A stretch of 64,000 bases of DNA from Patescibacteria group bacterium (lineage in GTDB: Bacteria > Patescibacteriota > Minisyncoccia > Phycocordibacterales > UBA918): contig JAZKFU010000009.1 of assembly GCA_040386275.1 (NCBI GenBank), positions 22,367-86,366 on the forward strand, in the 5' to 3' direction. Under the pieces are notes generated by a model, which saw only the letters and a program-made list of their open reading frames with translations, had not been told where the DNA came from and searched no databases. This document shows, piece by piece, positions 10,391 through 31,200 of this stretch (its first letter is position 1; every line of letters starts with the position of its first letter). The position numbers and the translations under genes were made by a program.

Positions 10391-10442
10391 TACTCGGTAT
10401 TTTGTAATACCGAATTAGTGGCTAATTTGGTAGAATACCTGT

Positions 10443-11393
10443 ATGCGTATCCCGTTCTTACTTGTACTCCTCACTACAATTATATTTTGTGGTTGGTATT
10501 TTTATAGTATCGCTGGCCCGTGTGTCGTACCGCAGACCTATGCGCTTGGGGCTATTGATCCGCGATTTAAGTTATCAAGTTCTACCATAGAAACCCTTTT
10601 GTCTGAGGCGACAGATGTGTGGGAGGCAAAAATTGGTCGAGAATTGTTTACCTACGACCCCGATTCAAACTTTAAAATTGAGTTTATTTATGATGAGCGG
10701 CAAGCCACCAGTGATAACGCTGAAACCCAAAAAGAAGTGCTGTCAGAGAAAGAGGCTATGAGTAAAAAAATTAGTGAAGAGTACACCAAATTGGTTAGTG
10801 AGTATGATGCCTTAAAAAAAGAGTATGACGCCGATGTAAGTGGGTATCAAAACCGGCTGGCTTCGTTTAACGCCACGGTGGAAAAATATAACAACGAGGG
10901 TGGGGCTCCTGCCGACGAGTATGCCCAGTTACAAAAAACTGAAAAGGCACTTAAAGCCCAAGAGCGAACTCTTGAAACTACTGCCGCAACATTATCTGGT
11001 ATTGCCAAGAACATTAATCGCCTCAGTGAAGAGGGGAATGCGGTTATTTCAGAATACAACCAAGGAGTAAATCGTTTTAACCAAAACTACACCGGAGGGG
11101 AAGAATTTACCCAGGGGGATTATACTGGTACGGCAATTCATATCTACCACTTTAAAGATACTAACGAACTCAAGAACGTATTAATTCATGAATTTGGTCA
11201 TGCGCTTGGGCTCCCGCACGTTGAAGGAAGTGAGTCCATCATGTATTATTTGATGGATAAGCAACCAGCAACTTCGGAGCTCTCCCCAGAAGATTTGGCT
11301 GCTTTAGAAGGTATATGTTTACCTCCTGATAGCATCGTTCAACGATTGCATCGGCAATTTAGTTCTTTATTTATCAAAGCCAAATTAATATAA
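10443..11393 (+). CDS. matrixin-like (M10 family) zinc metalloprotease with N-terminal TM anchor
   Basis: HEFGHALGLPH (HExxHxxGxxH) followed by the Met-turn SIMYY; coiled-coil Glu/Lys-rich middle. Confidence 0.7.
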   Translation: MRIPFLLVLLTTIIFCGWYFYSIAGPCVVPQTYALGAIDPRFKLSSSTIETLLSEATDVWEAKIGRELFTYDPDSNFKIEFIYDERQATSDNAETQKEVLSEKEAMSKKISEEYTKLVSEYDALKKEYDADVSGYQNRLASFNATVEKYNNEGGAPADEYAQLQKTEKALKAQERTLETTAATLSGIAKNINRLSEEGNAVISEYNQGVNRFNQNYTGGEEFTQGDYTGTAIHIYHFKDTNELKNVLIHEFGHALGLPHVEGSESIMYYLMDKQPATSELSPEDLAALEGICLPPDSIVQRLHRQFSSLFIKAKLI

Positions 11394-11396
11394 TGT

Positions 11397-12182
11397 ATGA
11401 ATTCAATATTTAACTCAAAGTTAAATCAGCTGCTTATTACGTTGGTACTCGCTGGAGCAACAATCGCCTTAATTGCGTTTGCCTACAGTACCATCAAGCA
11501 GCAAAACCAATGGGGAGGGCCCATGACCATTAATGTGACCGGAAAAGGTGAAGTGATGGCAAAGCCAGATATAGCCCAGTTTTCGTTTTCCGTACGAGCA
11601 GACGGTGCTGACGCCACTGAAGCCCAAAAGAAATCAGCTGATGCTATTAATGCCGTCACCGCGTACCTAAAAGAAAACGCGATTGAAGACAAAGATATCA
11701 AAACTGAAGGCTACAACATGAACCCAAAGTATAAGTATGAGCAAAAGCCATGCCTCTACGGTTCAATTTGTCCTCCGGGTGAACAAATACCTGACGGGTT
11801 TGAAGTATTTCAAACGGTGACGGTAAAAGTTCGGGATATTCAAAAAGCTGGCACACTCTTAGGCGGCGTAGGGGATAAGGGAGCCACTGATATTTCCGGT
11901 CTTAATTTCACCATTGATGATGAGGATGCCCTTAAAGCTCAAGCGCGCGAAATGGCGATAGCCGACGCTCAAGCCAATGCGGAAAAGCTAGCCGGTAACC
12001 TCAATGTTCGGATCGTAAAAATGATGAGTTACTACGAAGATTCTCCAGCCATGCCAATGTACGGCTACGGTGGCACCATGATGGATGCACAAGCTAAAAA
12101 TGCACCAATGGCTGCCCCAGAAATTTCAGTGGGGGAGAATAAGACTGTAAGCAACGTCACCATCACCTACGAAGTTAAGTAA
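11397..12182 (+). CDS. SIMPL-domain (DUF541) protein, membrane-anchored
   Basis: N-terminal TM; INVTGKGEV..KPD.A.FSFSV and the overall DUF541 pattern. Confidence 0.7.
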   Translation: MNSIFNSKLNQLLITLVLAGATIALIAFAYSTIKQQNQWGGPMTINVTGKGEVMAKPDIAQFSFSVRADGADATEAQKKSADAINAVTAYLKENAIEDKDIKTEGYNMNPKYKYEQKPCLYGSICPPGEQIPDGFEVFQTVTVKVRDIQKAGTLLGGVGDKGATDISGLNFTIDDEDALKAQAREMAIADAQANAEKLAGNLNVRIVKMMSYYEDSPAMPMYGYGGTMMDAQAKNAPMAAPEISVGENKTVSNVTITYEVK

Positions 12183-13845: not shown

Positions 13846-14091
13846 ATGACTCAAAAACAGAAATTAGTAGAAACTTTTCGGACCAATCCAGGCTCATTAA
13901 AGTTTAAACAGCTGGCAGCTGTACTTGAACATTATGGTTTTACCATGATTCAGGCTAAGGGCAGTCATGTAAAATTTAAACATCCAAAATTGTCTTCTGA
14001 TTTAATAATCCCAATTCATAACGGTGACTGCAAGGATTTTTATAAAAAAGAAGCATTAAAACGAGTTTCTGAAATCGAAAAAAATAAATAA
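13846..14091 (+). CDS. hicA: type II toxin HicA-family (YcfA-like mRNA interferase)
   Basis: 81 aa; LEHYGF...KGSHVKFKHP....IIPIHNG core typical of HicA. Confidence 0.7.
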   Translation: MTQKQKLVETFRTNPGSLKFKQLAAVLEHYGFTMIQAKGSHVKFKHPKLSSDLIIPIHNGDCKDFYKKEALKRVSEIEKNK

Positions 14092-14092
14092 T

Positions 14093-14407
14093 ATGGCTAC
14101 AACTTCAACTATCACCATTCAAAATAAAAAATATGAATATACTCTAAAACCTTCAAAGGAGAAGGGAGTTATTCGCTTTGTTTGCAAAGGAGCCAATATT
14201 GATCAAGACTTTCTTGCGGAAGATATTCCAACGTTAATTCTTGACTTGCCTAGACTCATTCTTGCTGAGCGAGCGTACCAGGACAATCAAACCGAAGTTG
14301 TTCGATTCCGTATCTCCTCAGAAGATAAGAAAAAAATTGAGAAAAAAGCGCTCGCTAGTGGTTTTGAGACCGTTTCTGATTATTTGCGTGCGCGAGCGCT
14401 AGCGTAG
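14093..14407 (+). CDS. hicB: cognate antitoxin (HicB-like) with a C-terminal ribbon-helix-helix
   Basis: Start 2 nt after the hicA stop; C-terminal RFRISSEDKKKIEKKALASGFETVSDYLRARAL resembles a CopG/RHH DNA-binding motif. Confidence 0.55.
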   Translation: MATTSTITIQNKKYEYTLKPSKEKGVIRFVCKGANIDQDFLAEDIPTLILDLPRLILAERAYQDNQTEVVRFRISSEDKKKIEKKALASGFETVSDYLRARALA

Positions 14408-15183: not shown

Positions 15184-15549
15184 ATGAAGCCAGAAGTACG
15201 TCATACCACGTTCTTCAAGATGGGCGAATCCTTAGCAGTGTTTGCCCGCAAAGTAGTAGATGTTGATCAGGCAGAAGTGCTCGGTCACAAAGTGGTGCTC
15301 AAAGAAATACCGGTTGATGAGTCAGTGCAGGTGCAGGACATACAGCGACGGTTCTGGGCGGTAACTGAGTATCCGCCAGAATTGGTTAGTTGCCTCGGGC
15401 AGTTTACTCATGCGGTTCGTGGTACTTCAGACTATGAGGTTGGTCAGCCTAATGATGATGAGTCCCGCAAACTCTTTCGTTGGGCACAAGAAAAAGTAAA
15501 AGTTATCCTCTTTCCTGAACAAGAACAACCAGAAGCAACTCGGCTGTAA
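15184..15549 (+). CDS. hypothetical protein (island gene A), GC-rich
   Basis: 121-aa ORF; shares an upstream motif (ctgcgtcaaaggg) with island gene B. Confidence 0.45.
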   Translation: MKPEVRHTTFFKMGESLAVFARKVVDVDQAEVLGHKVVLKEIPVDESVQVQDIQRRFWAVTEYPPELVSCLGQFTHAVRGTSDYEVGQPNDDESRKLFRWAQEKVKVILFPEQEQPEATRL

Positions 15550-15719
15550 TGAGAATCCAGACTGGAGTTAGCCCCACTTTTTTGTGGGGTAATTTTTTTT
15601 ACTTAAGCAGAATCAGTAAAAAGTATCATTTTGTAAGAAAGAGGGAGTTGCTGCGTCAAAGGGAACAGACCGTACAAAATGTGCGTATCAAGCGCACAAA
15701 ATAGAGAAAGGGACAGAGA

Positions 15720-16187
15720 ATGATGGACGCAGTAGTAGACTATATCAACCGAACGTTACGGAAAGATAGTGTCGCAGTTATGATTCAAGCACACGATGGG
15801 TCCCAATACATCGTTGACAGGAATCATTTTGTGACCAGAGCGGGAAGAACCATTGCTCACAAAGGGCATGTGGAAACGATTGCCAAAGCAGCGATGCGGG
15901 TCATGCGGTACCTGGATAAAGAGGTAACTGAAAAAGATTTTGAGGTCTTTAAACCTCGCAACCTCGGCCCAAACCGAACCCACTTCGTTGTGTGGTTTCC
16001 TTCTTCTGACGTGTTTAAAGTTGATGATGTTGCCTGGAAGCAACATCTGTTTGCTGTTGAAGATGAGCATTTATTTACCCGCGCGCAACTGCGGGCGATA
16101 CACTTTGTTTCTAGTGAAGCTCGTAATCTTCATGAACAACGGCAACTTCCAGTCGCTGACTATCATCTCGTGATGAAAGCGGGCTAA
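15720..16187 (+). CDS. hypothetical protein (island gene B)
   Basis: 155-aa ORF; translation-initiation region gagaaagggacagagaATG resembles that of gene C. Confidence 0.45.
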   Translation: MMDAVVDYINRTLRKDSVAVMIQAHDGSQYIVDRNHFVTRAGRTIAHKGHVETIAKAAMRVMRYLDKEVTEKDFEVFKPRNLGPNRTHFVVWFPSSDVFKVDDVAWKQHLFAVEDEHLFTRAQLRAIHFVSSEARNLHEQRQLPVADYHLVMKAG

Positions 16188-16311
16188 CAACAACACGGCA
16201 TCCGAATAACTTCGGGTGCTGCTTTTTTTATACAGTCATTTTTCCGGACATAGAGAATAGTGTGCTATAACGTACTAAGCGGAAGAAGTTCATCATGGAG
16301 AGGGGACAGAG

Positions 16312-16863
16312 ATGAAAGCTATGCTGGCACCTATGATTGGGAATCCCGACCGACCACTACCGCGGAGTATGTTCGTTCAAGGAATTCGTAACACCGTTAT
16401 GGTGGGCGTAGTCAGTCAAGACAATGGCTTTGCGGTTATCAAACCCATGCGAGACCCAACTGGTCGTGTTTGGATTCCACCGCAGGGTCCCATTGGTCAC
16501 AAACGTTCTTTGTTTGCTGCCGGCCGTCACGTACTGCGGGAAGAGATTCCTTCATTAAAGCGACCACACCGTCATGCCATTCCCATCATTGATTGGGACA
16601 GCGCTTTCTACGCAGGCTCGGCCATTAACGAGCATGCTCGTAGTGGTTACTGCAAAATGGTGCATGTAGTGTTGTTCCGGACGAATACGGCACGCTTGCC
16701 GACACTGCGTAGTAATGGCTCGGACGCCAGTGCCGCCCAGTGGGTGTTCTCAAATGAAATGTTGCACCATGTGCTTAAAAGTACCCATGACACCAATCCT
16801 GTAAAAGCCCACCTGGTCATGGAGGCAGCCTGGGCCGCAAAAGAAAAAGGATGGCTCCACTAA
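16312..16863 (+). CDS. hypothetical protein (island gene C)
   Basis: 183-aa ORF; translation-initiation region gagaggggacagagATG. Confidence 0.45.
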   Translation: MKAMLAPMIGNPDRPLPRSMFVQGIRNTVMVGVVSQDNGFAVIKPMRDPTGRVWIPPQGPIGHKRSLFAAGRHVLREEIPSLKRPHRHAIPIIDWDSAFYAGSAINEHARSGYCKMVHVVLFRTNTARLPTLRSNGSDASAAQWVFSNEMLHHVLKSTHDTNPVKAHLVMEAAWAAKEKGWLH

Positions 16864-16988: not shown

Positions 16989-17414
16989 ATGATGACAGAA
17001 GTAACCATGTACGTGGGACAGGCACTAACCGACGCACCTGATTCGTTTCGAGTGGATTTCCAAAACGAGCTCAAGGTAGCATTGCGAAAGTTGCCGGAGG
17101 TAACAGTTCTTGATTTTGTGGGGCTTGAAAATGGTACGGCGCAGGATGTCTATCTTCATGATAGAAAATGTACCACCAGCGCCACATTGTGTGTTTTTAT
17201 TGTTGATTACGCCTCCATTGGGTTGGGTATGGAGATTATGATTCGACATCACGCGGGTGGACCTGTGTTATTTTTTGCCAAGACTGGCCGAAAGGTAACG
17301 CGGATGCTCACGGGGTACATTGAGTGTATGGATCAAACATTGACCCGGTATAACGAGGTCGAGGATATCATCGTTGTGGTGAAAGAATATCTTCAGCACA
17401 CTGAAACTCATTGA
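16989..17414 (+). CDS. hypothetical protein (island gene D), possibly nucleoside 2-deoxyribosyltransferase-like fold
   Basis: Start taken at the internal MMTEVTMYVGQ (the ORF track's 16851 start overlaps gene C); the pattern YVGQ...D...FIVDYASIGLGMEI...GGPVLFF resembles the NDT/LOG-like Rossmann signature. Confidence 0.35.
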   Translation: MMTEVTMYVGQALTDAPDSFRVDFQNELKVALRKLPEVTVLDFVGLENGTAQDVYLHDRKCTTSATLCVFIVDYASIGLGMEIMIRHHAGGPVLFFAKTGRKVTRMLTGYIECMDQTLTRYNEVEDIIVVVKEYLQHTETH

Positions 17415-17453: not shown

Positions 17454-17963
17454 TTATTTTCGAACGTAGTCTACCCACTGAAACGATAGTCCTGCGTGTT
17501 CTTGAATGGGGTGTTCGGTAGCAATTGTAAAATCACTTTCGAACTCGGGGAAGGTTGTGTCACCCTCAGCATCATCGTTATAGAGTGTTAGGTAAATTTT
17601 ATCGACATAGGGAAGCGCTTGTTCGTACATCTGCGCCCCTCCACCAATATGAATTTCACTCGGGTTTTCTTTGGAGGCTACGGTAAATGCTTCCTCAAGT
17701 GAGGTGGTCGTGGTAGCTCCTGGGTAGGAGTAGCTTGCGTCACGCGTCACAATGATATTGGTTCTGCCTGGTAATGGTTTGCCTAAAATAGCAATAATCG
17801 ATTCAAAGGTTTTTCTACCCATAATGATAGGGTGGCCCAGGGTCAGAGCTTTAAAGCGTCGCAAATCGGCAGGGACGTGCCAGAGGAGGTCATTTCCTTG
17901 GCCAATGGCTCGTGTATGGCGACCCATGCCAGCCACGATAATAACGGGTGTATTGTGAGTCAT
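17454..17963 (-). CDS. folA: dihydrofolate reductase
   Basis: IIVAGMGRH..IG....LLWHVP.DLRRFKALTLGHPIIMGRKTFESI and the GRTNIIVTRD motif. Confidence 0.85.
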   Translation of the reverse strand: MTHNTPVIIVAGMGRHTRAIGQGNDLLWHVPADLRRFKALTLGHPIIMGRKTFESIIAILGKPLPGRTNIIVTRDASYSYPGATTTTSLEEAFTVASKENPSEIHIGGGAQMYEQALPYVDKIYLTLYNDDAEGDTTFPEFESDFTIATEHPIQEHAGLSFQWVDYVRK

Positions 17964-18001
17964 ATTAGACTGCAGTATACTACGAGAAATAAAAAATCAA
18001 T

Positions 18002-18541
18002 ATGGCAATAAATGCAGGCATTTTTGGAGACAAGACCAGTTTTGACCACCGGTATATTCCTGACCACGACAAGCTTGAAACTTCAGTAAAGCTTTGGAAA
18101 CAACTGGGATTAAAAATTGTTCTTACCTCAGGTACCTTTGATTTATTTCATATTGGCCACGCGCAGTATTTAGAGAAAGCAAAAGAGCTCGGGGACGTCT
18201 TGATTGTGGGGGTAGACAGTGATGCTCGGGTAAAAAAGCGAAAAGGTCCTGATCGTCCGGTAGTACCAGACTCGGAACGAGTACTTATTTTATCGCACGT
18301 TCGGCATGTTGATGTAGTGACGATTAAAAATGTAGATGATCCGAGCAATCATTTAATTAAACTTATCAAGCCTGACGTACTTATTGTTTCTGAATCAACC
18401 AAACATGCTGATAATGAGGTGGATGAAAAAGCGCAATATTGTGGTGAAATAATAGTGCTTGAACCCCAAGCGACCACGAGTACGAGCGCCAAACTGCGTA
18501 TGATTCAAATTGGAAAAGAAGAAGGTCTCGCGCACGGTTAG
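18002..18541 (+). CDS. cytidylyltransferase-superfamily nucleotidyltransferase (RfaE domain II / HldE-like adenylyltransferase)
   Basis: TSGTFDLFHIGHAQYL (HxGH motif), GDVLIVGVDSD and KGPDRPVV..SERVLILSHVRHVDVV. Confidence 0.65.
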   Translation: MAINAGIFGDKTSFDHRYIPDHDKLETSVKLWKQLGLKIVLTSGTFDLFHIGHAQYLEKAKELGDVLIVGVDSDARVKKRKGPDRPVVPDSERVLILSHVRHVDVVTIKNVDDPSNHLIKLIKPDVLIVSESTKHADNEVDEKAQYCGEIIVLEPQATTSTSAKLRMIQIGKEEGLAHG

Positions 18542-18542
18542 T

Positions 18543-19388
18543 ATGATTGCAATTTGTCACATTCCGGTAGTTCATCGCGGGTACTTAGATTTTGTCCGAA
18601 CGTGCGAGGCGAAGGGAGTGACAAAATTGTTTTTGGTTGATTTACAATTTCTCTCACCCTATGATGAATTTGATTACTTGGTGCGAAAGAATAGTTTGCA
18701 TGCATTATCGGCGACTGATATTAAACAGGCGCTCGAACAGTACACTAATATCCCCGTAGTAATTTTAACTGACGAAACAGTAGCCGAAGTAGAAAACGGC
18801 GACGTCGAAATTTTGATGCCAAAGGAAGATATCAGTACGTTCTTGGCAGAAAAATATTTAGCTGGTCGAACCATACAGTTTGAAAATGTTTTCTTGCGGT
18901 GGAATCGCGAAAACTTGGGAGAAACAAAAGAACCAGATGTGCAAGCAAGTGATTTGCCAGAGTTTGTAACAACTGTTTTTCATCAAGTGCTTGAAGAGGC
19001 GACAAAAAGTGCGGATTGGTGGCGGAGTGTCGGTGCGGCCTTAGTCAAAAATGGGGAAGTGATAGCGCTTGCCCATAACGACCACATGCCGTTTGAACAG
19101 CTTCCTAATGTATTTGGCGATGCTCGGGCCTTATTTAAAAAAGGTATCAACATTAACTACGCTACTTCTGCCCATGCAGAGGTCGGGGTAATTGCCGAGG
19201 CGGCTCGCAAAGGCATTTCACCCCAAGGCGCGGAATTATTTTTAACGGATTTTCCGTGCCCGTACTGTGCTCGTTTGATAGCGAAAGCTGGTGTTAAAAA
19301 AATTTATTTCCTCAAGGGATACGCGGTGTTAGAAGGAGATGAGTTTTTAAAGGGGGAAGGGGTGGAGCTGATACAAGTTGGATTATAA
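18543..19388 (+). CDS. dCMP/cytidine deaminase-family protein with an approximately 140-aa N-terminal extension
   Basis: C-terminal zinc-deaminase motifs HAEVGVI and PCPYC; the start is placed at the ATG 2 nt after the upstream stop. Confidence 0.7.
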   Translation: MIAICHIPVVHRGYLDFVRTCEAKGVTKLFLVDLQFLSPYDEFDYLVRKNSLHALSATDIKQALEQYTNIPVVILTDETVAEVENGDVEILMPKEDISTFLAEKYLAGRTIQFENVFLRWNRENLGETKEPDVQASDLPEFVTTVFHQVLEEATKSADWWRSVGAALVKNGEVIALAHNDHMPFEQLPNVFGDARALFKKGININYATSAHAEVGVIAEAARKGISPQGAELFLTDFPCPYCARLIAKAGVKKIYFLKGYAVLEGDEFLKGEGVELIQVGL

Positions 19389-19430
19389 AAATAAGGACCG
19401 AGGCGGAATGTTCCGCCTCGGTCTGATTTT

Positions 19431-20108
19431 TTAAAACTGCTCATCATGATGCAGGGCGTGCGAACGGATATACTGTTCGCGAGTCATGTCTGGTTCGTAA
19501 GCTTTCAAGTACCCGAGCAGTCGCCCGTGGTCCTTTTTCCAGCCAGCCAAATTTTTGTACACAGCCGGCCTGATTTCATCGAGACCATTGGGCTCATCAA
19601 CATTTTCATGCAGGTGACCGATGACAGTGCCGCCGTTGAAGATTGCGGAACCCCAGCGAGTGTAGTTGGCCCCACCTGTTCCTTCTGCAAAGCAGCCAAA
19701 TTTCTCCATCAAGTATCTGCGACAGCGGTTCATACCGAGCGACTCAGCGTCAGTCAGAACAGGATTTGCAGTGTGACGCTTGAGTACAATCACAAACTTT
19801 TTCGCCAACGCGCCTTGGTGACGGTTGAATCCTCCTGGGGGAATGAATGCAAAACAGCTGGCGTTGTCGAAGATGATTTCTCCTTTGAGAAGGGCGGGGT
19901 TGCAAAAGACACACCGTTCCTTTGTATTCATTCCAGCGTGCAGCATGTCGTAGAATGCACCGGGCGTATTGGTGCGTCCCAGGGCAATGACATATTCGAG
20001 TGTCAGGCCGGGAATGGTCGGCCAGCCGAATCCTTCATGAATCATCAGGGTCGGTGTATCACCGCTTGGGGAGTCTATAGACAAGTCATTTCTCCTTGCT
20101 TTGGGCAA
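19431..20108 (-). CDS. HIT-like superfamily protein (putative nucleotide hydrolase/transferase)
   Basis: CVFCNP Cys pair and a GHLHENV histidine-triad-like motif; weak. Confidence 0.4.
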   Translation of the reverse strand: MPKARRNDLSIDSPSGDTPTLMIHEGFGWPTIPGLTLEYVIALGRTNTPGAFYDMLHAGMNTKERCVFCNPALLKGEIIFDNASCFAFIPPGGFNRHQGALAKKFVIVLKRHTANPVLTDAESLGMNRCRRYLMEKFGCFAEGTGGANYTRWGSAIFNGGTVIGHLHENVDEPNGLDEIRPAVYKNLAGWKKDHGRLLGYLKAYEPDMTREQYIRSHALHHDEQF

Positions 20109-20206
20109 TACTACCCAGTTTCAATCTGCCGCTACAATACAACAATTTGCGTAAAAAACAAGCTTACGGTACTCTACAAATGGAAGCTCAACTTGGAGGA
20201 ATAGTA

Positions 20207-20755
20207 ATGTCTGCACTGCCTAAATCTAAGCCGATGTCTGACACTGAAGTGGTGTTATACGAAGGCATTCACAACATTGTCACTGTTATCATCGGAGAAA
20301 ATTTGTACGACCGTCGTCAAGTTATTATGAAAAATACTGGCCTACAAAGTGCAGGTGCTACTTTGTGGGGTGTGTCGGCCGGTGTCGTCGATCCATCAAC
20401 GGGTCGCAAAATGTTGTGCAAGAGCAGTATTCCTATCATGCCAGCTGATGCGGAAGTGATGGGTACTCGTATTGCTGATCGTTTCTTCAGGGTCGCAGTC
20501 GATGATTATCTCGAGCACTTTCGTTTTGAAGCTTGGTGCGAGCACAATCCTTACAATGGGGCCATGACCATTGTGCGGATGATTTGCCCGCAGGGTCCTG
20601 ATAAATGGTTGATTGGTGGCGGTATGGACAATACCGTTGAATATCGAGGGGAATTTGCTCGGATGCCGCAGTGGGCAAAAGACATCGCCTACAAAAACTT
20701 TGGCGGTTGGATTGGTACTGTAGGGGCAAACCTCGGTCCGCTTGTGACTAAATGA
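20207..20755 (+). CDS. hypothetical protein
   Basis: Start moved to the Met preceded by a GGAGGA RBS (MSALPKSK...); the ORF-track start at 20096 lacks an RBS. Confidence 0.45.
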   Translation: MSALPKSKPMSDTEVVLYEGIHNIVTVIIGENLYDRRQVIMKNTGLQSAGATLWGVSAGVVDPSTGRKMLCKSSIPIMPADAEVMGTRIADRFFRVAVDDYLEHFRFEAWCEHNPYNGAMTIVRMICPQGPDKWLIGGGMDNTVEYRGEFARMPQWAKDIAYKNFGGWIGTVGANLGPLVTK

Positions 20756-20799
20756 AAATACATTGGCCGCTTCAATATGAAGCGGCCAATATTTTATTT

Positions 20800-21267
20800 T
20801 TACACAACTTTCTTATAACTCAACTTCACCTTCAGACCTTCGGTGTCTTCTGCTTTTCGTACACCAGTTATTAATTGTGCGTGGAGGTGTTCGACACTAC
20901 TGCCGTTGTAGCCTCCTTCACCAAACCGCATAAAGAAACCGCCACCCGGGATTTTATATTCGTTAATGACCCAGTCCACTAAATCAAATAGTTCGATGCG
21001 ACTTTCAGGAGTGAGGTCCGACGGAACGGTAATGTGCGCTGGTTTATACACAAAAATATAGTGTTGAGTTGTCCCTTCATAGGGGCTCATGTTTTCCGTT
21101 AAAAACCAAGATTCAGTTTCTTTAAGAATTGGTTTCGGGTGGTACTGTCTAAAATGTGCCTCACAAAACGGACAGACTCCATCGGCTTCAATTTGGGCCA
21201 TTAACTTTTTTTGCTCCTCAGTTCGAGCTTCCTTGTGGTCGAGGCCAGCGTCAGGAGTAAAAGACAT
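20800..21267 (-). CDS. HIT-family protein (HxHxQ variant) with a CxxC zinc motif
   Basis: GVCPFCE and VEHLHAQLI. Confidence 0.55.
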   Translation of the reverse strand: MSFTPDAGLDHKEARTEEQKKLMAQIEADGVCPFCEAHFRQYHPKPILKETESWFLTENMSPYEGTTQHYIFVYKPAHITVPSDLTPESRIELFDLVDWVINEYKIPGGGFFMRFGEGGYNGSSVEHLHAQLITGVRKAEDTEGLKVKLSYKKVV

Positions 21268-21270
21268 ACT

Positions 21271-22185
21271 TTATATAGCCACTGGAATATCCTTCATCGC
21301 CTCACCGGCATGATAATCATCTCCGAGGGTGAAGTCAGTGTTACGGAATTCGGTAAAGGTGGTGGTTGGATTATCGAGTGTCACCGTTGGGAATGGGAAG
21401 GTTTCGCGCTTAAGGAATTCCTCTACCTTTGGAATTTGGTCTACATAAATGTGGGCATCAGAAATAGTGTGGATGTACTCACCAACTTCATAGCCGGTTA
21501 CTTGCGCCAGCATCATGGTGAGGGCAGCATACTGAATCATGTTAGACGGTACTCCAATTGGTACGTCACCTGACCGTTGGAACATATGCAAGTTTAATTT
21601 TCCGTTTAAGATACGGATATGGAGCCAGCCGTGGCAGGGGCACACCACTACTTTCTGCTGACGACCTTCAACCCGCGCGGTGTACTGCGGAACCCAGGGA
21701 GAAATAAAGTGTGTCTTTAAATGAGGTCGTTCTTTAATTTGTTGGATAATGTGCTTGAATTGATCGTATGATTCACCTTCGGCGGTAGGGAAGTCGTGAA
21801 AGGCAGCACCATATGAACCCGGACCAAGGTCGCCTTCTTCGAGTCCACGCTTGGCACACTTTTCTTTAGTGACCCAGGCTGCCCAAAACTTGCATCCGTA
21901 TTCCTCGAGTTCTTTCTGTGTTCGAGCACCATTAGCGAAACCAATAATTTCACCCACTGCCTGTTTCCAAAATCCCTTTACACTTCGTTCAGTAATCATC
22001 GGAAAACCATTGCTTAAATCAAAACGCATTGGATTAGCTCCGAATAGCGTAATGCAGTCAGTTCCGTCAGGATTTTCGGCACTGGTACCAGCTTGGCTTT
22101 GTGAACGAATCCCTTTATCTAAAATAGTTTGTAAAAGTTGCTTGTATTGGAGGTCAGGTGTGCGCTCGTTATATGGTTTCATCAT
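21271..22185 (-). CDS. thyA: thymidylate synthase (ThyA)-family protein, divergent
   Basis: Catalytic Cys in CPCHGW, FQRSGDVPIGVPSNM (Q-R-S-D and N) and DAHIY; the start is set at MMKPY. Of the usual YGFQWR and SRR motifs, the two Arg-containing tails are replaced (YGAAFH, LKTHFISPW). Confidence 0.75.
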   Translation of the reverse strand: MMKPYNERTPDLQYKQLLQTILDKGIRSQSQAGTSAENPDGTDCITLFGANPMRFDLSNGFPMITERSVKGFWKQAVGEIIGFANGARTQKELEEYGCKFWAAWVTKEKCAKRGLEEGDLGPGSYGAAFHDFPTAEGESYDQFKHIIQQIKERPHLKTHFISPWVPQYTARVEGRQQKVVVCPCHGWLHIRILNGKLNLHMFQRSGDVPIGVPSNMIQYAALTMMLAQVTGYEVGEYIHTISDAHIYVDQIPKVEEFLKRETFPFPTVTLDNPTTTFTEFRNTDFTLGDDYHAGEAMKDIPVAI

Positions 22186-22252
22186 AGGACCTAATAATAC
22201 TGTATTTGTATATAAAGTGTAACTTTGGGAACCTGGTATACTATTTTGTAAT

Positions 22253-22678
22253 ATGCAGATACGCATAAAAAAACTAGCCCCCACCGCTATCATGCCTAGC
22301 TTTGCTCATACAAGTGATGCCGGGATGGACCTTTTTACTTTAGAGTCTATAGAAATAAGAGCGGGAACACGAATACTGATACCTACCGGTCTCTCTATGG
22401 CCATTCCGGAAGGATACGTAGGCTTAATTTGGGATAAAAGTGGTTTATCAAATAAAGGGGGATTAAAAGTTTTGGGGGGAGTTGTTGATGCGGGATATCG
22501 GGGGGAGATTTTAGTAGGGTTATTAAATACTTCAGATGCTGACTATATCTTTGAAGCTGGCCAAAAAATTGCCCAAATGATAATTCAAAAAGTTGAACAC
22601 CCAGAGTTTATAGAGGTTTCTGAGCTTGATAGCACAGAGAGGGGAAATGGGGCATTTGGAAGTACCGGTGTATACTAG
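22253..22678 (+). CDS. dut: dUTP diphosphatase
   Basis: AGMDL, GLIWDKSGLS, GVVDAGYRGEI and a C-terminal ERG..GFGSTG motif. Confidence 0.9.
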   Translation: MQIRIKKLAPTAIMPSFAHTSDAGMDLFTLESIEIRAGTRILIPTGLSMAIPEGYVGLIWDKSGLSNKGGLKVLGGVVDAGYRGEILVGLLNTSDADYIFEAGQKIAQMIIQKVEHPEFIEVSELDSTERGNGAFGSTGVY

Positions 22679-22696
22679 TGAGATAATATTTTTGAT

Positions 22697-23389
22697 ATGA
22701 GCACGGCAAAATTAATTGTGATTGACGGTGGAGCGAACGTGGGGAAAGCGACCCAGGCGGACATGTTAATGAATCGATTAATTGCAGAAGGGTACCAAGT
22801 CGGAAAAATTGATTTTCCACGGTACAGTCAAAACTCTATTGGGCACTTTATTCGAGAATGTTTAGACGGAGAAGAAGATAAGTTTGCTGAGCTTGATCCA
22901 CGGATTGTGGCGATGGTGTACGCGATTGATCGATTTGAATCTAAAAAACAAATTGAAGAATGGATGGAAGAAGGACGTATCATTATTTTTGACCGGTACG
23001 TGAGTTCCAACATGATGCACCAGGGTGCAAAAGTGCATGACGCCGATGCTCGTGAAGAATTCTTTTCGTGGGTGGAACATTTGGAATACGATATTTTAGG
23101 ATTGCCACGACCTGATATGACGATTTATTTGGATATTCCACCCCAGGATAGTCAAAAGTTACTAGAGTACATTGAAGACATTGGTGTGACTGTAGTTGAT
23201 CCCAAAGAAAAAGATAAACTCCACCAGGCAAAGGTTTCAAAATGTGCGAGTTATCTAGCAAACACGCACAACCAATGGGTAACAGTGCCTTGTGTGACTG
23301 ATGGGGCCTTACGTCTCCGGGAAGAAATTCACGAAGAAGTGTACACTGCGGTAAAGGCCAATATTCCAGCGCCTCACGCAACGGTATAA
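22697..23389 (+). CDS. tmk: thymidylate/deoxynucleotide kinase-family protein with an atypical P-loop
   Basis: IVIDGGANVGKATQ (Walker-A-like) and the DRY motif (IIFDRYVSSNMMHQG). Confidence 0.6.
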   Translation: MSTAKLIVIDGGANVGKATQADMLMNRLIAEGYQVGKIDFPRYSQNSIGHFIRECLDGEEDKFAELDPRIVAMVYAIDRFESKKQIEEWMEEGRIIIFDRYVSSNMMHQGAKVHDADAREEFFSWVEHLEYDILGLPRPDMTIYLDIPPQDSQKLLEYIEDIGVTVVDPKEKDKLHQAKVSKCASYLANTHNQWVTVPCVTDGALRLREEIHEEVYTAVKANIPAPHATV

Positions 23390-23540
23390 TTGAATTAAGG
23401 AGTAAAAGATGGAGAAAAAATTGCCCGGGTTTGAACCCGGGCAATTTTTTGATGGGGTGATATACTGTACTAAATATTTTTGCCTATGATTTAAGCTCCC
23501 GTACAATTTCTGAAGATTATATAAATTTTAAGTTTTAACT

Positions 23541-24809
23541 ATGCAAAATTACGATTTCATTAAAGCGCAGGATCCAGAATTGTACGCGACGTTAATTGGA
23601 GAAGAAGCTCGAGAAGCCCGGGGTATAGAATTAATCCCTAGTGAGAACTATGTTTCGCGCGCTGTCTTGGAGGCTAATGGTTCAGTATTCACGAATAAAT
23701 ATTCCGAGGGGTATCCTGGGAAGCGATACTACGGTGGGCAACAGTACACCGACATGATGGAGAGTATCACGATTGAACGTGCAAAAAAGTTATTTAAAGC
23801 AAACTATGCAAACGTGCAGCCATTAGGAGGAGCGGCCGCTAACGTAGCGATGTACTTTGCGCTTATGGAACCAGGAGACACCGTATTAGGTATGGACCTG
23901 AGTCACGGTGGACACCTTACCCACGGTCACCCTACGACAGCAATTAACAAAGTCTTTAACTTTGTCCGCTACAAAATGAAGGACGTTGATACGGGAGAAA
24001 TTGATTATGAAGCATTGCGACAGACTGCACTTGAACATAAGCCAAAAATTATTTTGGCAGGATTTTCTGCGTATTGTCGCGAGCTTGATTACCAAAAATT
24101 TGTTGATATCGCGCGTGAAGTAGGAGCGTACGCGGTAGCCGACGTAGCGCATATTACCGGACTGATTGCCGGAGGGGTAGCCAAGAACCCGTTTGATTAT
24201 GGGTTTGATGTAATGACGATGACCACACATAAATCTCTTCGTGGTCCACGAGGAGGAATGATTGTCGTGCGCGAGAGTGAAGAGATTGCTAAAAAAATTA
24301 ACAAGGCAGTATTCCCCGGAATGCAGGGTGGGCCACACATGCATATTATTGCGGCCAAAGGAGTTGCCTTTGGTGAAGCACTAACTCCACAATTTAAAGT
24401 GTACGCAGCCCAAATTCTAAAAAATGCTAAAGCCATGGAAGCGGTCTTTAAAGCGCACAACGTACGATTGCTTTGTGGAGGAACTGATAATCACATGTTA
24501 CTGGCGGACGTGTTTGGCAGTCTTGGTATAACCGGTCAAGAAGCAGAAACTGTTTTGGATAAGGTTGGGATTACGCTTAACAAAAATATGATTGCTGATG
24601 AAACTCGTACTGCTATGGATCCTTCAGGAATTCGCTTCGGCACGCCAGCCATGACCACACGCGGCATGATGGAAGGGGAAGCCACCAAGCTCGCTGAAAT
24701 TATGATTACCACCATGAAAGCTAAAGATGATTTGGTGAAGATTAATGAGTTGCAAAATGAGGTGCAGGCTCTTTGCGAAGCGCATCCCGTCCCCGAAAAG
24801 TTCGTCTAA
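23541..24809 (+). CDS. glyA: serine hydroxymethyltransferase
   Basis: LIPSENYVS.AVLEA.GS..TNKYSEGYPGKRYYGG and the PLP-lysine region THKSLRGPRGG. Confidence 0.95.
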   Translation: MQNYDFIKAQDPELYATLIGEEAREARGIELIPSENYVSRAVLEANGSVFTNKYSEGYPGKRYYGGQQYTDMMESITIERAKKLFKANYANVQPLGGAAANVAMYFALMEPGDTVLGMDLSHGGHLTHGHPTTAINKVFNFVRYKMKDVDTGEIDYEALRQTALEHKPKIILAGFSAYCRELDYQKFVDIAREVGAYAVADVAHITGLIAGGVAKNPFDYGFDVMTMTTHKSLRGPRGGMIVVRESEEIAKKINKAVFPGMQGGPHMHIIAAKGVAFGEALTPQFKVYAAQILKNAKAMEAVFKAHNVRLLCGGTDNHMLLADVFGSLGITGQEAETVLDKVGITLNKNMIADETRTAMDPSGIRFGTPAMTTRGMMEGEATKLAEIMITTMKAKDDLVKINELQNEVQALCEAHPVPEKFV

Positions 24810-28295: not shown

Positions 28296-31200
28296 ATGAA
28301 TAAACAACATGGTCGGGAAAATGACTCAGTGGCCGTTGTGCCTGAGACCGAAAAAAGTGACGTAGCAACTCGTGAAGAATTGATGCAAGCATTTTGGCTT
28401 GAGCACGATATTTTTAATAAAAGTCTGGCTACTCCAGCTGGGGATACGCCCAAAGGTAGCTACACCTTTTATGACGGTCCACCGTTTGCGACGGGCACTC
28501 CTCACTACGGGCATATTTTAGCCAGTACCATCAAAGATGCGGTGCCCCGATTTTGGACCATGAACGGTATGCGGGTAGACCGAAAGTGGGGCTGGGATTG
28601 TCATGGACTACCACTAGAGAATTTAATTGAAAAGAAACTCGGACTGGCTACTAAACGGGATATTGAAGAGTACGGCGTAAAGAATTTTAACGAAGCTGCT
28701 CGTGGTGCGGTGATGGAATATGCTGACTACTGGAAAATGGCCATTCCCCGCATGGGACGATGGGCCGACATGGAGGACGATTACAAAACCATGGACAATA
28801 CCTACACCGAAAGTGTGTGGTGGGTTTTTTCTGAATTACATAAAAAAGGATTAGTGTTTGAAGGCTTTAAAACTATGCATCTCTGTCCACGCTGTGGGAC
28901 TACGTTGAGTAATTTTGAAGTGAATCAAGGCTATAAAGATATTAAAGATATTGCCGTTACGGTTAAGTTACCGTTACTTGATGATGCTGGTAACGTTACC
29001 GATACCTCACTGTTGGTCTGGACCACGACTCCGTGGACGTTGCCGGGGAATATGGCTGCTGCTGTTCACAATGATATTCAGTATGCAAAAGTAAAAGTAA
29101 CCACAGAAACCGGAGCTGAGTTTTTTATTCTCGCTAAAGAGCGCTTGTCACAATTAGGAGATGTATCCTATATGATAGAGGAAGAACTGAAAGGATCGAC
29201 ACTGGTCGGACGTTCCTACCAGTCACCATTTACTTTTTGGCAAAACCAAGATTTTGACAAAACCAATGCCTGGAAAATTTGGCACGCGGACTATGTCGAA
29301 GTCGGGACTGAAGGCACCGGGGCAGTGCATATCGCGCCAGCGTATGGAGATGATGATATGCAGTTAGCCAAAGCCAACAACGTGCCAATCATGCACCACG
29401 TTGATACGGCCGGGCACTTTATGCCGTTGGTGACAGAATTCGCGGGACGGTTGGTAAAACCAAAAGATGACGATGCTTCGGGGATTGATCACAAAGATAC
29501 TGATATTGAAATATTAAAGTCTTTGCAAACCGCAGGCAAAATTTTCAAAAAAGAAAACATCACTCACAGCTATCCGCACTGTTGGCGCTGTGATACACCG
29601 TTACTTAACTACGCGACCACCTCGTGGTTTGTGAATGTGCCGGCAATTAAAGATGCGCTTGTAGCAAATAACGCTCAAGTACACTGGGTGCCAGAGCATG
29701 TGGGCACTAATCGCTTTGGAAAATGGCTTGAAGGAGCGAGAGATTGGGCTGTCTCGCGACAGCGGTATTGGGGAGCACCCTTGCCAATTTGGAAAAATCC
29801 TAAAACCGGTGAGTACAAAGTTTTTGGTTCGCTCGCCGAGTTGCAACAGTATATTCCGCAAACCAATAACACCTTCTTTGTGATGCGTCATGCGCAAGCG
29901 CACAGTAATCTGGGCGATGCCGTAATTGATGCGATTCCGGATGAAGAAAATCCGTTAACTGATACCGGTCGCGAGCAATGTAAAGTAGCCGCCGAGCAAT
30001 TGAAAGACGCGGGCATTACTCGCATTGTGCACTCAGGGATGCAGCGCACGCGCGAGACGGCGCTCGCTGTGGCGGCTGAGCTTGGGTTACCAGAATCAGC
30101 GGTGACGGTAGATACTCGCATTACCGAATTACAAACTGGTAACGCCTTTGAAGGGAAAACCTGGGCAGAGTACAACGCCAACTACGCGAGTGAAGAAGAA
30201 AAGTTCACCAAAGTAATTCCCGGGGTAGAAAACCGCTACGACCTTATTAAACGGGCGGGAGCATTCTTGTATGACTTTAATGCGAGTCATCAAAATGAAA
30301 CTGTCTTAGTAGTGGCGCACGCCAGTTCAACGTTTGCGTTACGGTGCGTCGCTGAAGGCGCCGATCATACCCGTGTCATTGAACTTAAAAAGGAAGGGTA
30401 CTTTGGTAATGCTGAAGTCCGTCCGTTACCGTTTACTCCGGTACCGCATAATGATAATTACGCACTTGATTACCACCGGCCGTACATTGATGAGATTGAG
30501 CTTATTGATACTGACGGTACTAAGCTTGTGCGCGTGCCCGATGTATTTGACTGTTGGTTTGAAAGTGGTTCAATGCCGTATGCGCAACATCATTTCCTCG
30601 GGGAAGGACGAGCAGACTTTGAGGGAACAAAATTCCCGGCGCAGTTTATTGCTGAAGGTCTTGATCAGACGCGCGGGTGGTTCTATTCACTGATTGTGTT
30701 AGGCACAGCCTTATTTGGAAAATCACCGTTTGAGAATGTAATAGTAAACGGGTTAGTGCTCGCGGAAGATGGAAAAAAGATGTCTAAATCTCTCAAGAAC
30801 TATCCTGACCCAATGGAGTTAGTTGATCGTGTAGGAGCGGATGCTATTCGATACTACATGCTCACCTCACCATTGATGAAAGGGGAAGATCTAAACTTTT
30901 CGGAAAAAGAAGCACTTGAGTTACAACGAAAAAATATCGGCCGGTTGCATAACGTGCTTGCTATGTACGAGATGTTTGCCGACGGCACTAAAGCCAATGC
31001 AAGTTCCGACAACATACTTGATCGTTGGATTATTACCCGACTTAATCAAATCATTTCTGAAGCCACTGCCGGATACAAAACCTACGAACTAGATAAAGCC
31101 AACCGACCAATTGCTGATTTTATTGATGATGTATCGGTCTGGTATCTTCGCAGAAGTCGAGAACGCTTAAAGGCCGATGATGAAGCTGACAAAGCTTTAC

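Follow-up and report, generated by a model that had tools for sequence, protein, structure and literature searches.

We analysed a chromosomal segment of 64,000 nucleotides (hereafter the window; contig JAZKFU010000009.1, positions 22,367 to 86,366 of the forward strand), assembled from a metagenome and belonging to a tiny symbiotic bacterium of the Patescibacteria, or Candidate Phyla Radiation (CPR). Positions 17454-24809 of the window hold a thymidylate gene cluster composed of folA, a nucleotidyltransferase gene, a deaminase gene, HIT-b, a hypothetical gene, HIT-a, thyA, dut, tmk and glyA. An earlier reading of the sequence (the original prediction) had placed all the genes that it named within 7.4 kb, which Pfam matches and translations confirm, and the motifs that it quoted are present in the translated proteins (GVCPFC...EHLHAQ, RCVFC...GHLHEN and FDLFHIGH). 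The cluster is flanked by genes for ribosomal proteins, NusG/SecE, tRNA synthetases, RecA and SSB. The GC content of the window is uniform (about 0.42-0.47), the base composition of the cluster being that of the rest, and near-identical gene sets are found on contigs JAWVHH010001235 and JAZKIJ010000029.

The gene for dihydrofolate reductase, folA, lies on the minus strand (17454-17963; PF00186, DHFR_1, E = 5e-45). It is followed on the plus strand by a cytidylyltransferase-fold nucleotidyltransferase (NTase) resembling domain II of RfaE/HldE (18002-18541; PF01467, CTP_transf_like, E = 1.4e-20) and by the deaminase, in which a Rossmann-like alpha/beta N-terminal domain (N-domain; 18543-18920, from the AlphaFold model) precedes a zinc deaminase domain of the dCMP deaminase type with HAE...PCPYC motifs (18921-19388; PF00383, dCMP_cyt_deam_1, E = 1.7e-14). 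Three genes are carried by the minus strand: HIT-b (19431-20084), a divergent paralogue in the HIT superfamily with CxFC and HLHxN motifs; HIT-a (20800-21267), a divergent protein of the same superfamily (CPFC...HLHAQ) located downstream of thyA; and thyA itself, encoding thymidylate synthase (21271-22185, in an open reading frame (ORF) extending to 22293; PF00303, Thymidylat_synt, E = 2.6e-65). Both HIT assignments come from family profiles. Diverging from thyA, the plus strand then carries dut, encoding a trimeric dUTPase (22253-22678; PF00692, dUTPase, E = 1.8e-28), the dTMP kinase-like gene tmk (22697-23389; PF02223, Thymidylate_kin, E = 1.1e-20) and glyA, encoding serine hydroxymethyltransferase (23541-24809; PF00464, SHMT, E = 1.5e-149).

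The true gene starts are likely to give shorter genes than the longest ORFs. For the deaminase, whose longest ORF spans 18510-19388 on the plus strand, the likely start is the ATG at 18543, according to the gene call in a near-identical assembly; such calls also give likely starts at 20084 for HIT-b and 20147 for the hypothetical gene. The thyA start near 22185 was estimated from where orthologue matches begin, the gene call being 22266. With a start at 18543, NTase and deaminase genes are separated by 1 nucleotide on the same strand, and thyA and HIT-a are separated by 3 nucleotides on the opposite strand. Two strong bidirectional hairpins divide the convergent units. The one between the deaminase and HIT-b genes (19395-19424) resembles an intrinsic terminator, with a 13-bp stem containing 9 G-C pairs and T-runs on both strands; the other, also terminator-like, lies between the hypothetical gene and the HIT-a-thyA unit (20760-20792; 13-15-bp stem, T-runs on both strands).

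We then investigated the conservation of this arrangement in relatives. HIT-a was used as anchor in 185,579 species genomes, which yielded 42 loci, and the deaminase as an independent anchor in metagenome contigs, which yielded 40 further loci (individual loci are cited below by L numbers). The architecture of the loci was mapped by tblastn with the window proteins, and neighbours were counted wherever 4 kb or more of sequence flanked the anchor on each side. About 80 loci, from Kaiserbacteria, Paceibacterota, Parcubacteria, Minisyncoccia and Saccharimonadales, display one recurring order: glyA, dut and/or a MazG gene, then thyA, HIT-a and optionally HIT-b, which point in one direction, then the deaminase and NTase genes convergent with them, and then folA. 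Within 4 kb of HIT-a, the NTase, deaminase and thyA genes were each present in 25 loci out of 25, folA in 24, glyA in 20, L11 in 9 and argS in 8. With the deaminase as anchor, NTase, HIT-a and thyA were found in 9 loci out of 9, folA and L11 in 8, glyA in 6 and argS in none. The original prediction had proposed to check whether the HIT and NTase genes stay with thyA/dut in relatives, and with thyA they do so in every locus counted with either anchor. Since it is kept across about 80 related loci, this co-localisation is far above chance.

The core persists down to 29-35% identity for HIT-a and about 30% for the deaminase. In the Saccharimonadales-type loci (L040, L042-L044), folA is inserted between thyA and HIT-a (thyA-folA-HIT), the NTase-deaminase pair is still convergent with the HIT gene, and the regions retrieved, about 10 kb to each side, contain neither glyA nor argS. 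The second HIT gene relocates and stays inside the cluster, upstream of thyA in L031 and L032 and beside folA in L033. Directly upstream of the deaminase gene, on the same strand, the NTase gene occurs in 66 loci; the gap between the two has a median of 24 nucleotides and is close to zero in 63 of these loci. In one lineage, the two are joined in frame into an NTase-N-domain-deaminase protein of 467 amino acids (P0229), which is found in two independent assemblies (a Logan assembly and an NCBI metagenome-assembled genome). HIT-a is on the same strand as thyA and at most 150 nucleotides away in 56 of 67 loci. Of 79 loci, 50 carry both HIT-a and HIT-b, and many of the other contigs are truncated; tmk is part of the cluster in only some 10 of 42 loci. 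Clustering of all ORFs around the anchor in the 42 loci revealed no further conserved partner of unassigned family. The outcome that would have spoken against the original prediction, namely accessory genes that are unrelated housekeeping enzymes and lack a conserved neighbourhood, is not what we observed: the neighbourhood is kept, and NTase and deaminase are fused in one lineage. Comparative genomics shows, at the level of gene neighbourhoods, that the NTase, the N-domain deaminase and the HIT enzyme(s) belong to one selected unit with thyA and folA. From gene spacing and orientation, the NTase behaves as translationally coupled to the deaminase, and the HIT proteins behave as partners of ThyA, co-transcribed with its gene.

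In the deaminase, PF00383 covers residues 155-268 of the 18510-19388 ORF (53.9 bits for a cut-off of 25), and an N-terminal stretch of about 125-140 amino acids is unmatched. The HAEVG and PCPYC zinc motifs are invariant in the family. By profile, the closest PDB structures of the core are the dCMP deaminases of S-TIM5, T4, Streptococcus mutans and human (E values from 9e-17 to 3e-12), and the dCMP/dCTP enzyme of PBCV-1 is also among the relatives, both by profile and by predicted fold. The top Foldseek matches of the model are the same dCMP deaminases (1.8e-10), and the full-length model recovered the deaminase core only. AHNEH stands in place of the canonical GYNG motif. The protein scores below the cut-offs of the TIGR02571 (ComEB) model (47.9 vs. 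219) and of NF041025 (67.6 bits vs. 400, E = 9e-19), and it matches the PADLOC dCTPase model at 2.4e-22 (residues 201-280 only).

The N-domain has no match in Pfam or in PDB sequences, profile searches giving only noise, and Foldseek found no significant fold match in the PDB, the best being pantothenate synthetase (E = 0.011, TM about 0.5). The extra N-terminal domain of no recognised family in the original prediction is thus confirmed. Its AlphaFold model is a five-stranded Rossmann-like alpha/beta fold of about 125 amino acids (pLDDT 84, pTM 0.78), and the invariant residues are H11-x-G13-Y14, after strand 1, D44, Y45, R48, K49, E95, D96, R119 and N124. The family comprises 381 clusters at 50% identity among 1.84 billion representatives. 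In the full-length matches listed by this search (about 270-330 amino acids), the N-domain is always N-terminal to this deaminase and no other architecture occurs; shorter matches may be fragments or stand-alone copies.

Like the AvcD/DCD anti-phage dCTP deaminase and the bifunctional dCMP/dCTP deaminase of PBCV-1, the protein has a dCMP deaminase core. In AvcD this core is joined to an N-terminal nucleotide-binding domain, a precedent for two-domain enzymes of this kind acting on dCTP and dCMP. However, only about 75 core residues match AvcD, the N-domain is not P-loop kinase-like, and the gene universally adjoins thyA on the chromosome rather than belonging to a defence island. We rejected a defence system, PADLOC having matched only the deaminase core to its anti-phage dCTPase model. 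Riboflavin (RibD with FAD synthetase), NAD and nucleoside-antibiotic (MilA/MilB-like) readings were also rejected, since the deaminase resembles dCMP deaminases more closely than it does RibD, and ThyA is of the dUMP type.

No other protein of the cluster is as conserved as the NTase, which shows at least 70% identity among its best 120 matches, which are all stand-alone proteins of about 175-198 amino acids and show no new fusion architecture. It exceeds the PF01467 cut-off (74.2 bits vs. 21), and the HxGH (FDLFHIGH) and TSTSAK motifs are kept in 36 orthologues. Its PDB relatives are ECT, HldC (5x9q) and TagD. Its best NCBIfam and PHROG matches are heptose-1-phosphate adenylyltransferases, as which its homologues are also annotated in databases. 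With HldE-II, HldC and ECT, it shares the fold, the HxGH motif and an ISTT-like motif, and over 100 residues it is about 45% similar to HldC. It differs from HldE and HldC in its scores, which remain under the cut-offs of TIGR02199 rfaE_dom_II (115.6 vs. 181.5 bits) and NF008454 (106.9 vs. 521), in its unconserved KGGDY segment, in its constant pairing with a deaminase and in its lack of heptose-pathway context: the families that recur within 9 kb in the 42 loci include no GmhA, HldA or GmhB-type gene. The HldE segment KGGDY corresponds to SKSTKH in the NTase. By score, sugar-side segment and gene context, the NTase is therefore not placed among the HldE-II/HldC heptose-1-phosphate adenylyltransferases. 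In ECT, tandem cytidylyltransferase-like domains can act as a pseudo-dimer, which resembles the arrangement of NTase and N-domain in the P0229 fusion.

Neither HIT protein of the window has a match at E ≤ 0.01 in Pfam, and single-sequence searches of NCBIfam, PHROG and the PDB were likewise empty. Against PF01230, HIT-a scores 14.1 bits for a threshold of 21.5, and HIT-b gives no match. This Pfam family is matched by 13 out of 13 relatives of HIT-a (best 9.7e-8) and by 8 out of 21 relatives of HIT-b (best 1.1e-6). The HIT-a family profile matches Hint-type PDB chains (E = 6e-4), and that of HIT-b matches PDB HIT proteins (4e-9) and, over about 70 residues, GalT chains (1.4e-7). The two families align with each other in hhalign at a probability of 99.8% (E = 1.8e-29). 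By family profile, both proteins belong to the HIT superfamily and are paralogous to each other; the two paralogues of the original prediction were thus recovered by family profiles and hhalign and not by single-sequence search.

Both are single-domain proteins, of 155 (HIT-a) and 217 (HIT-b) amino acids in the window. The 380 relatives of HIT-a are all of about 155 amino acids, and the HIT-b family ranges from 175 to 225. They share the CxFC motif, an N-terminal helical extension (ARTxEQKxLM), an RFG motif and the H-L-H nucleophile motif. In the EHLHAQLI segment of HIT-a, H127 and H129 are invariant, and as third residue of the triad 41 relatives have H and 29 have Q; HIT-b carries GHLHENV, and HxHxN is found in 42 of 60 family members. 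Replacement of the third histidine by glutamine (HxHxQ) is the signature of the GalT transferase/phosphorylase branch of the superfamily. The HIT-a of the window carries HxHxQ, reported as this signature in the family literature (Brenner 2002). The two-half-barrel architecture of the GalT branch (about 320-380 amino acids) is not found in either protein, and GalT-family Pfam models are unmatched, save for faint DUF4931_N/DUF4921 matches. As in Hint hydrolases and in GalT or Ap4A-phosphorylase transferases, both have a CxxC motif, an H-phi-H nucleophile motif and a single HIT alpha+beta domain. They differ from these known branches in their very weak similarity (profile E values from 1e-3 to 1e-9), their conserved N-terminal helical extension, their third triad residue (H/Q or N) and their occurrence as a tandem paralogue pair linked to thyA. 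The HxHx(H/Q/N) triad would lean towards the transferase/phosphorylase branch.

ThyA scores well above the cut-off of the TIGR03284 thymidylate synthase equivalog (179.1 vs. 108.35 bits). Aligned with E. coli ThyA, it retains C146, H147, Q165-R166-S167, D169, N177, H207, Y209, W80/W83, Y94 and the PVAI C-terminus. This catalytic set, including the dUMP-specifying N177, is kept in the great majority of 39 CPR orthologues, the scattered exceptions being three proteins with W83F, L029 with Y209F, six with PTPx/PTAV C-termini, and the divergent L038. Because DHFR is needed only if dihydrofolate is made, the linkage with folA indicates that ThyA would be a methylase producing dihydrofolate. Of the four arginines that bind the dUMP phosphate (R21, R126', R127' and R166), only R166 is left in the window protein, which has Q21, K126 and T127. 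T127 occurs in all CPR orthologues, and R21Q and R126K in the clade of the window; most orthologues keep R126 and many R21. The clade of the window also has an insertion of 8 amino acids after position 21. Since R127' is dispensable and a natural R127'G thymidylate synthase is active (PMC6005164), we treat the arginine losses as an unexplained peculiarity of the sequence rather than as evidence for another substrate. In L038 (Paceibacterota; 10426-11418), a divergent ThyA-like gene (36% identity, C-terminus ETEL rather than PVAI, R126 replaced by F and R21 by E) lies downstream, not upstream, of the HIT gene; it may encode a functionally different ThyA paralogue.

Tmk exceeds the Pfam cut-off (PF02223, 74.5 bits vs. 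27) and remains below those of TIGR00041 (73.3 vs. 83.25) and NF005923 (126.9, E = 7e-37, vs. 193); a P-loop (GANVGKAT) and a DRY motif are visible in its sequence. The dut slot contains, in related loci, dut, a gene for a MazG-like NTP pyrophosphatase, or both. In L045 (6956-7297), a MazG-like gene of this kind (PF03819, 113 amino acids), absent from the window, lies between thyA and glyA. The same slot carries one in nine genome loci as well as L045, and in further metagenome loci; besides L045, the loci concerned include L004, L006, L008, L009, L014, L018, L021, L023, L026, L049, L051, L054, L061, L067 and L075. As a candidate pyrophosphatase for dCTP/dUTP, the MazG-like protein may supply the deaminase and ThyA, and its presence in this slot fits a feed from dCTP/dUTP to deoxynucleoside monophosphates. 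In the near-identical NCBI assembly L001 (8567-9015), dut is split into two gene calls by an apparent frameshift, whereas the window and L002 carry it uninterrupted; the split probably reflects a fault in the assembly or a pseudogene at strain level.

Other genes were found in and around the cluster. The hypothetical gene (20147-20755, plus strand) is lineage-specific and lies outside the conserved core: its homologues are restricted to the clade of the window (L004, L005, L050, L051; 27-35% identity) and share the motifs IFGENL and FEAWCENNP. It has no match in Pfam, even at E ≤ 1, in NCBIfam or in PADLOC, and PHROG gives only a non-significant match to phrog_4236 (E = 0.057). Adjoining folA, an ORF on the plus strand (16989-17414, in an ORF from 16851) possibly encodes an Rcl/DNPH1-like dNMP N-glycosidase. 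Rcl/DNPH1 is an N-hydrolase of 2'-deoxynucleoside 5'-phosphates and 5-hydroxymethyl-dUMP, and MilB hydrolyses CMP and hydroxymethyl-CMP. The profile of four orthologues matches only Rcl/DNPH1 and MilB PDB chains, weakly (E = 0.0016-1.1, most ≤ 0.13), all 16 matches being in the Rcl/DNPH1 superfamily, and in this weak match a GLGxE segment aligns with the active-site region of Rcl. Orthologues lie beside folA or NTase genes in L006, L010, L039, L047, L049, L054 and L073. A role in sanitising dNMPs or in base exchange is possible for this protein.

Between rplK and the cluster, three consecutive ORFs on the plus strand (15184-16863; 121, 155 and 183 amino acids) have no family match, and their homologues among the loci are found only in near-identical assemblies. 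The third (16312-16863) has no Pfam match at E ≤ 1 and a faint match to the Nudix-like NF003787 (E = 0.004). Between the NusG/SecE genes and rplK, a HicA toxin gene (PF07927) is followed by a gene for a small NikA-like/ribbon-helix-helix protein (13846-14407, plus strand), and from their sequences the two probably form a toxin-antitoxin pair. On the other side of the cluster, the isoleucyl-tRNA synthetase gene (28296-31847, plus strand; 1183 amino acids) has, according to the Pfam matches, a His_Phos_1 domain (PF00300) inserted between the halves of the catalytic domain.

We consider it reasonably probable that the cluster is a Patescibacteria-wide module converting deoxycytidine nucleotides into ordinary dTMP, in which the NTase/deaminase unit and the HIT pair would handle intermediates made of a nucleoside monophosphate (NMP) linked to a group X, feeding or regulating the module. 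From its family assignment, the deaminase would convert dCMP, and possibly dCTP, into the deoxyuridine nucleotide. Dut, or the MazG-like pyrophosphatase in some relatives, would yield and sanitise dUMP, which ThyA would methylate with methylenetetrahydrofolate from GlyA; FolA would recycle dihydrofolate and Tmk would phosphorylate dTMP. The NTase and the N-domain deaminase would act as one physical unit on a cytosine nucleotide. As one option, the NTase would take (d)CTP, as a nucleotidyl conjugate or with loss of pyrophosphate, deamination coming next, and the N-domain would be a nucleotide-binding or regulatory module, or a pseudo-dimer partner as in the tandem domains of ECT. The HIT pair would resolve or transfer NMP-X and thereby supply the ThyA pathway with (d)NMP or (d)NDP. 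None of these steps would yield a modified base. A more specific proposal, which we regard as rather doubtful, is that the NTase, the Rossmann N-domain deaminase and the thyA-linked HIT-a/HIT-b constitute an undescribed, Patescibacteria-specific carrier-mediated nucleotidyl route. In one version, (d)CTP would be converted into (d)CMP-X and deaminated, and the HIT transferase/phosphorylase would release dUMP or dUDP; in another, pyrimidine deoxynucleotides would be interconverted in a reaction coupled to pyrophosphate or phosphate.

Several points weigh against a dTMP-forming module with these roles. The substrates assigned to the NTase, the N-domain, HIT-a and HIT-b are purely inferred, and both HIT proteins match Hint-type hydrolases only weakly. 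The HxGY of the N-domain aligns on the HIGH motif of the NTase with an hhalign probability of only 3%, which is not significant and leaves the N-domain unproven as an NTase duplicate. MazG or Dut already offers a one-enzyme route in many of the same loci, because of which an NTase and HIT route to dCMP or dUMP would be redundant. Synteny extends over long stretches in CPR genomes and takes in genes that are clearly unrelated (argS, DUF2914), so that some of the linkage could be a historical legacy. Moreover, the cultured saccharibacterium Southlakia epibionticum has a tmk-dcd-folA-thyA arrangement (SEML1_0409-0412; dcd encodes a dCTP deaminase) without the NTase, the N-domain deaminase or the HIT genes, and its tandem pair of divergent HIT-like genes (SEML1_0715/0716) lies elsewhere, away from thyA (PMC10633639). 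All these Southlakia genes are non-essential in co-culture according to Tn-seq (PMC10633639 Tables S1/S2). For one protein of the SEML1_0715/0716 pair, the best structural domain match is the Ap4A phosphorylase Rv2613c (PMC10633639).

Another possibility, which we judge unlikely, is that the accessory genes are unrelated housekeeping enzymes, found near thyA only through the synteny of small CPR genomes. The NTase could then activate sugars, teichoic-acid precursors or cofactors, acting on heptose-1-phosphate, in agreement with its best NCBIfam and PHROG matches and its source annotation, or on glycerol-3-phosphate, flavin mononucleotide, nicotinamide mononucleotide or phosphopantetheine, and the HIT proteins could be generic Hint-type phosphoramidases. 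The obviously unrelated argS, DUF2914 and L11 genes are also syntenic in Paceibacteria-type loci. In Southlakia, besides the HIT pair away from thyA, the sole cytidylyltransferase-like gene retrieved by a term search of the supplement sits among glycosyltransferase and GalE genes (PMC10633639). However, the NTase is under the HldE-II cut-off and without the KGGDY segment, and no GmhA, HldA or GmhB-type gene recurs nearby. If the two had no function in common, it would be difficult to account for the NTase-deaminase fusion and for the near-zero spacing of their genes in 63 of 66 loci, and the core outlasts rearrangements that remove argS, glyA and L11, while the second HIT gene moves and remains in the cluster. 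The established chemistry of HIT enzymes, removal of NMP from adducts of the phosphoramidate and anhydride types, would fit a regulatory role: the NTase and HIT proteins would run a cycle of nucleotidylylation and de-nucleotidylylation, or of a signalling nucleotide, that controls the deaminase or ThyA, and the N-domain would be a sensor replacing a lost allosteric site for dCTP/dTTP. Consistent with this, AHNEH replaces the GYNG allosteric/substrate loop, and the N-domain combines a Rossmann topology of the nucleotide-binding type with invariant basic and acidic residues and is attached to the deaminase in the full-length matches listed. We know of no precedent, however, for HldE-type NTases modifying proteins, neither a target residue nor a signalling nucleotide can be named, and the computed results do not separate this regulatory explanation from the metabolic one. 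We consider a regulatory cycle quite improbable.

According to the original prediction, the product made or salvaged by the cluster may be a modified pyrimidine (deoxy)nucleotide, such as a hydroxymethylated or hypermodified dU or dC, with the ThyA-like enzyme, the kinase, the NTase and the HIT proteins acting as in phage DNA hypermodification. This is highly improbable. In its favour, the accessory genes co-evolve with thyA, the ThyA of the window clade has lost three of the four arginines for the dUMP phosphate and gained its 8-residue insertion, and the ORF adjoining folA is weakly similar to Rcl/DNPH1/MilB, a family acting on 5-hydroxymethyl-dUMP and hydroxymethyl-CMP. Tmk under the NCBIfam equivalog cut-offs, and L038 with its far more divergent ThyA-like gene beside the HIT gene, point in the same direction. 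On the other hand, ThyA is above the thymidylate synthase equivalog cut-off and keeps its catalytic and hydride-transfer-associated residues, N177 and PVAI; most CPR orthologues keep R21 and R126, and R127 is dispensable (PMC6005164). The linkage with folA (24/25 and 8/9 loci) argues for a methylation producing dihydrofolate. Phage hypermodification pathways need a ThyA paralogue of the hydroxymethylase type, which forms no dihydrofolate and can do without DHFR (N177D in the dCMP enzymes), whereas the ThyA of the cluster keeps N177 and a canonical C-terminus. Such pathways also carry base-modifying enzymes, but none recurs among the clustered ORFs of the 42 loci, where no 5-HMUDK-type kinase, glycosyltransferase, amino-acid-/aminoacyl- or polyamine-transferase or radical-SAM-type family was found. 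PADLOC and PHROG show nothing past canonical nucleotide enzymes. No relatives of the HIT-a or N-domain families were detected in 2.9 million viral contigs, on which ground a phage origin was rejected. The suggested modified nucleotide thus gained no positive support, ThyA being canonical and both base-modifying genes and viral relatives being missing. The overall interpretation holds in one part, as the accessory genes truly belong to the cluster, and not in the other, as a modified pyrimidine is not indicated.

The dTMP-forming module that we favour follows the same enzyme logic as thyA-folA operons, the td-frd-cd genes of phage T4 and the human DCTPP1-DCTD-TYMS axis, i.e. a dCMP deaminase leading to thymidylate synthase, recycling by DHFR and SHMT, a feed by dUTPase or dCTP pyrophosphatase, and a dTMP kinase. 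To our knowledge, known thymidylate clusters have no cytidylyltransferase-fold NTase, HIT pair or Rossmann-N-domain deaminase, and in the thymidylate-cluster literature that we searched none of these was reported in such clusters. In the present cluster, by contrast, the NTase, the HIT protein(s) and the N-domain deaminase are as conserved as thyA itself. Nothing specific was found in the literature on an association between HIT proteins, thymidylate and CPR. The association of thymidylate genes with these accessory enzymes is thus apparently undescribed.

The Patescibacteria represent a large share of bacterial diversity; they lack de novo nucleotide synthesis and must rebalance salvaged nucleotides. 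The cluster appears to be the standard CPR unit for conversion of dC into dT nucleotides, which fits this need, and the present evidence gives no indication of a new DNA base. Among the constant partners in the cluster, three or four have no assigned activity, namely the N-domain of the deaminase, the non-HldE NTase and the two atypical HIT proteins. For annotation, about 1000 or more genes now misnamed 'rfaE', 'Ap4A hydrolase' or 'deaminase' are concerned. Solving the chemistry of these partners would fill a gap in CPR nucleotide metabolism and could reveal new HIT or nucleotidyltransferase reactions. If true, the carrier-mediated route would be a new way to supply and balance thymidylate precursors in organisms without de novo nucleotide synthesis.

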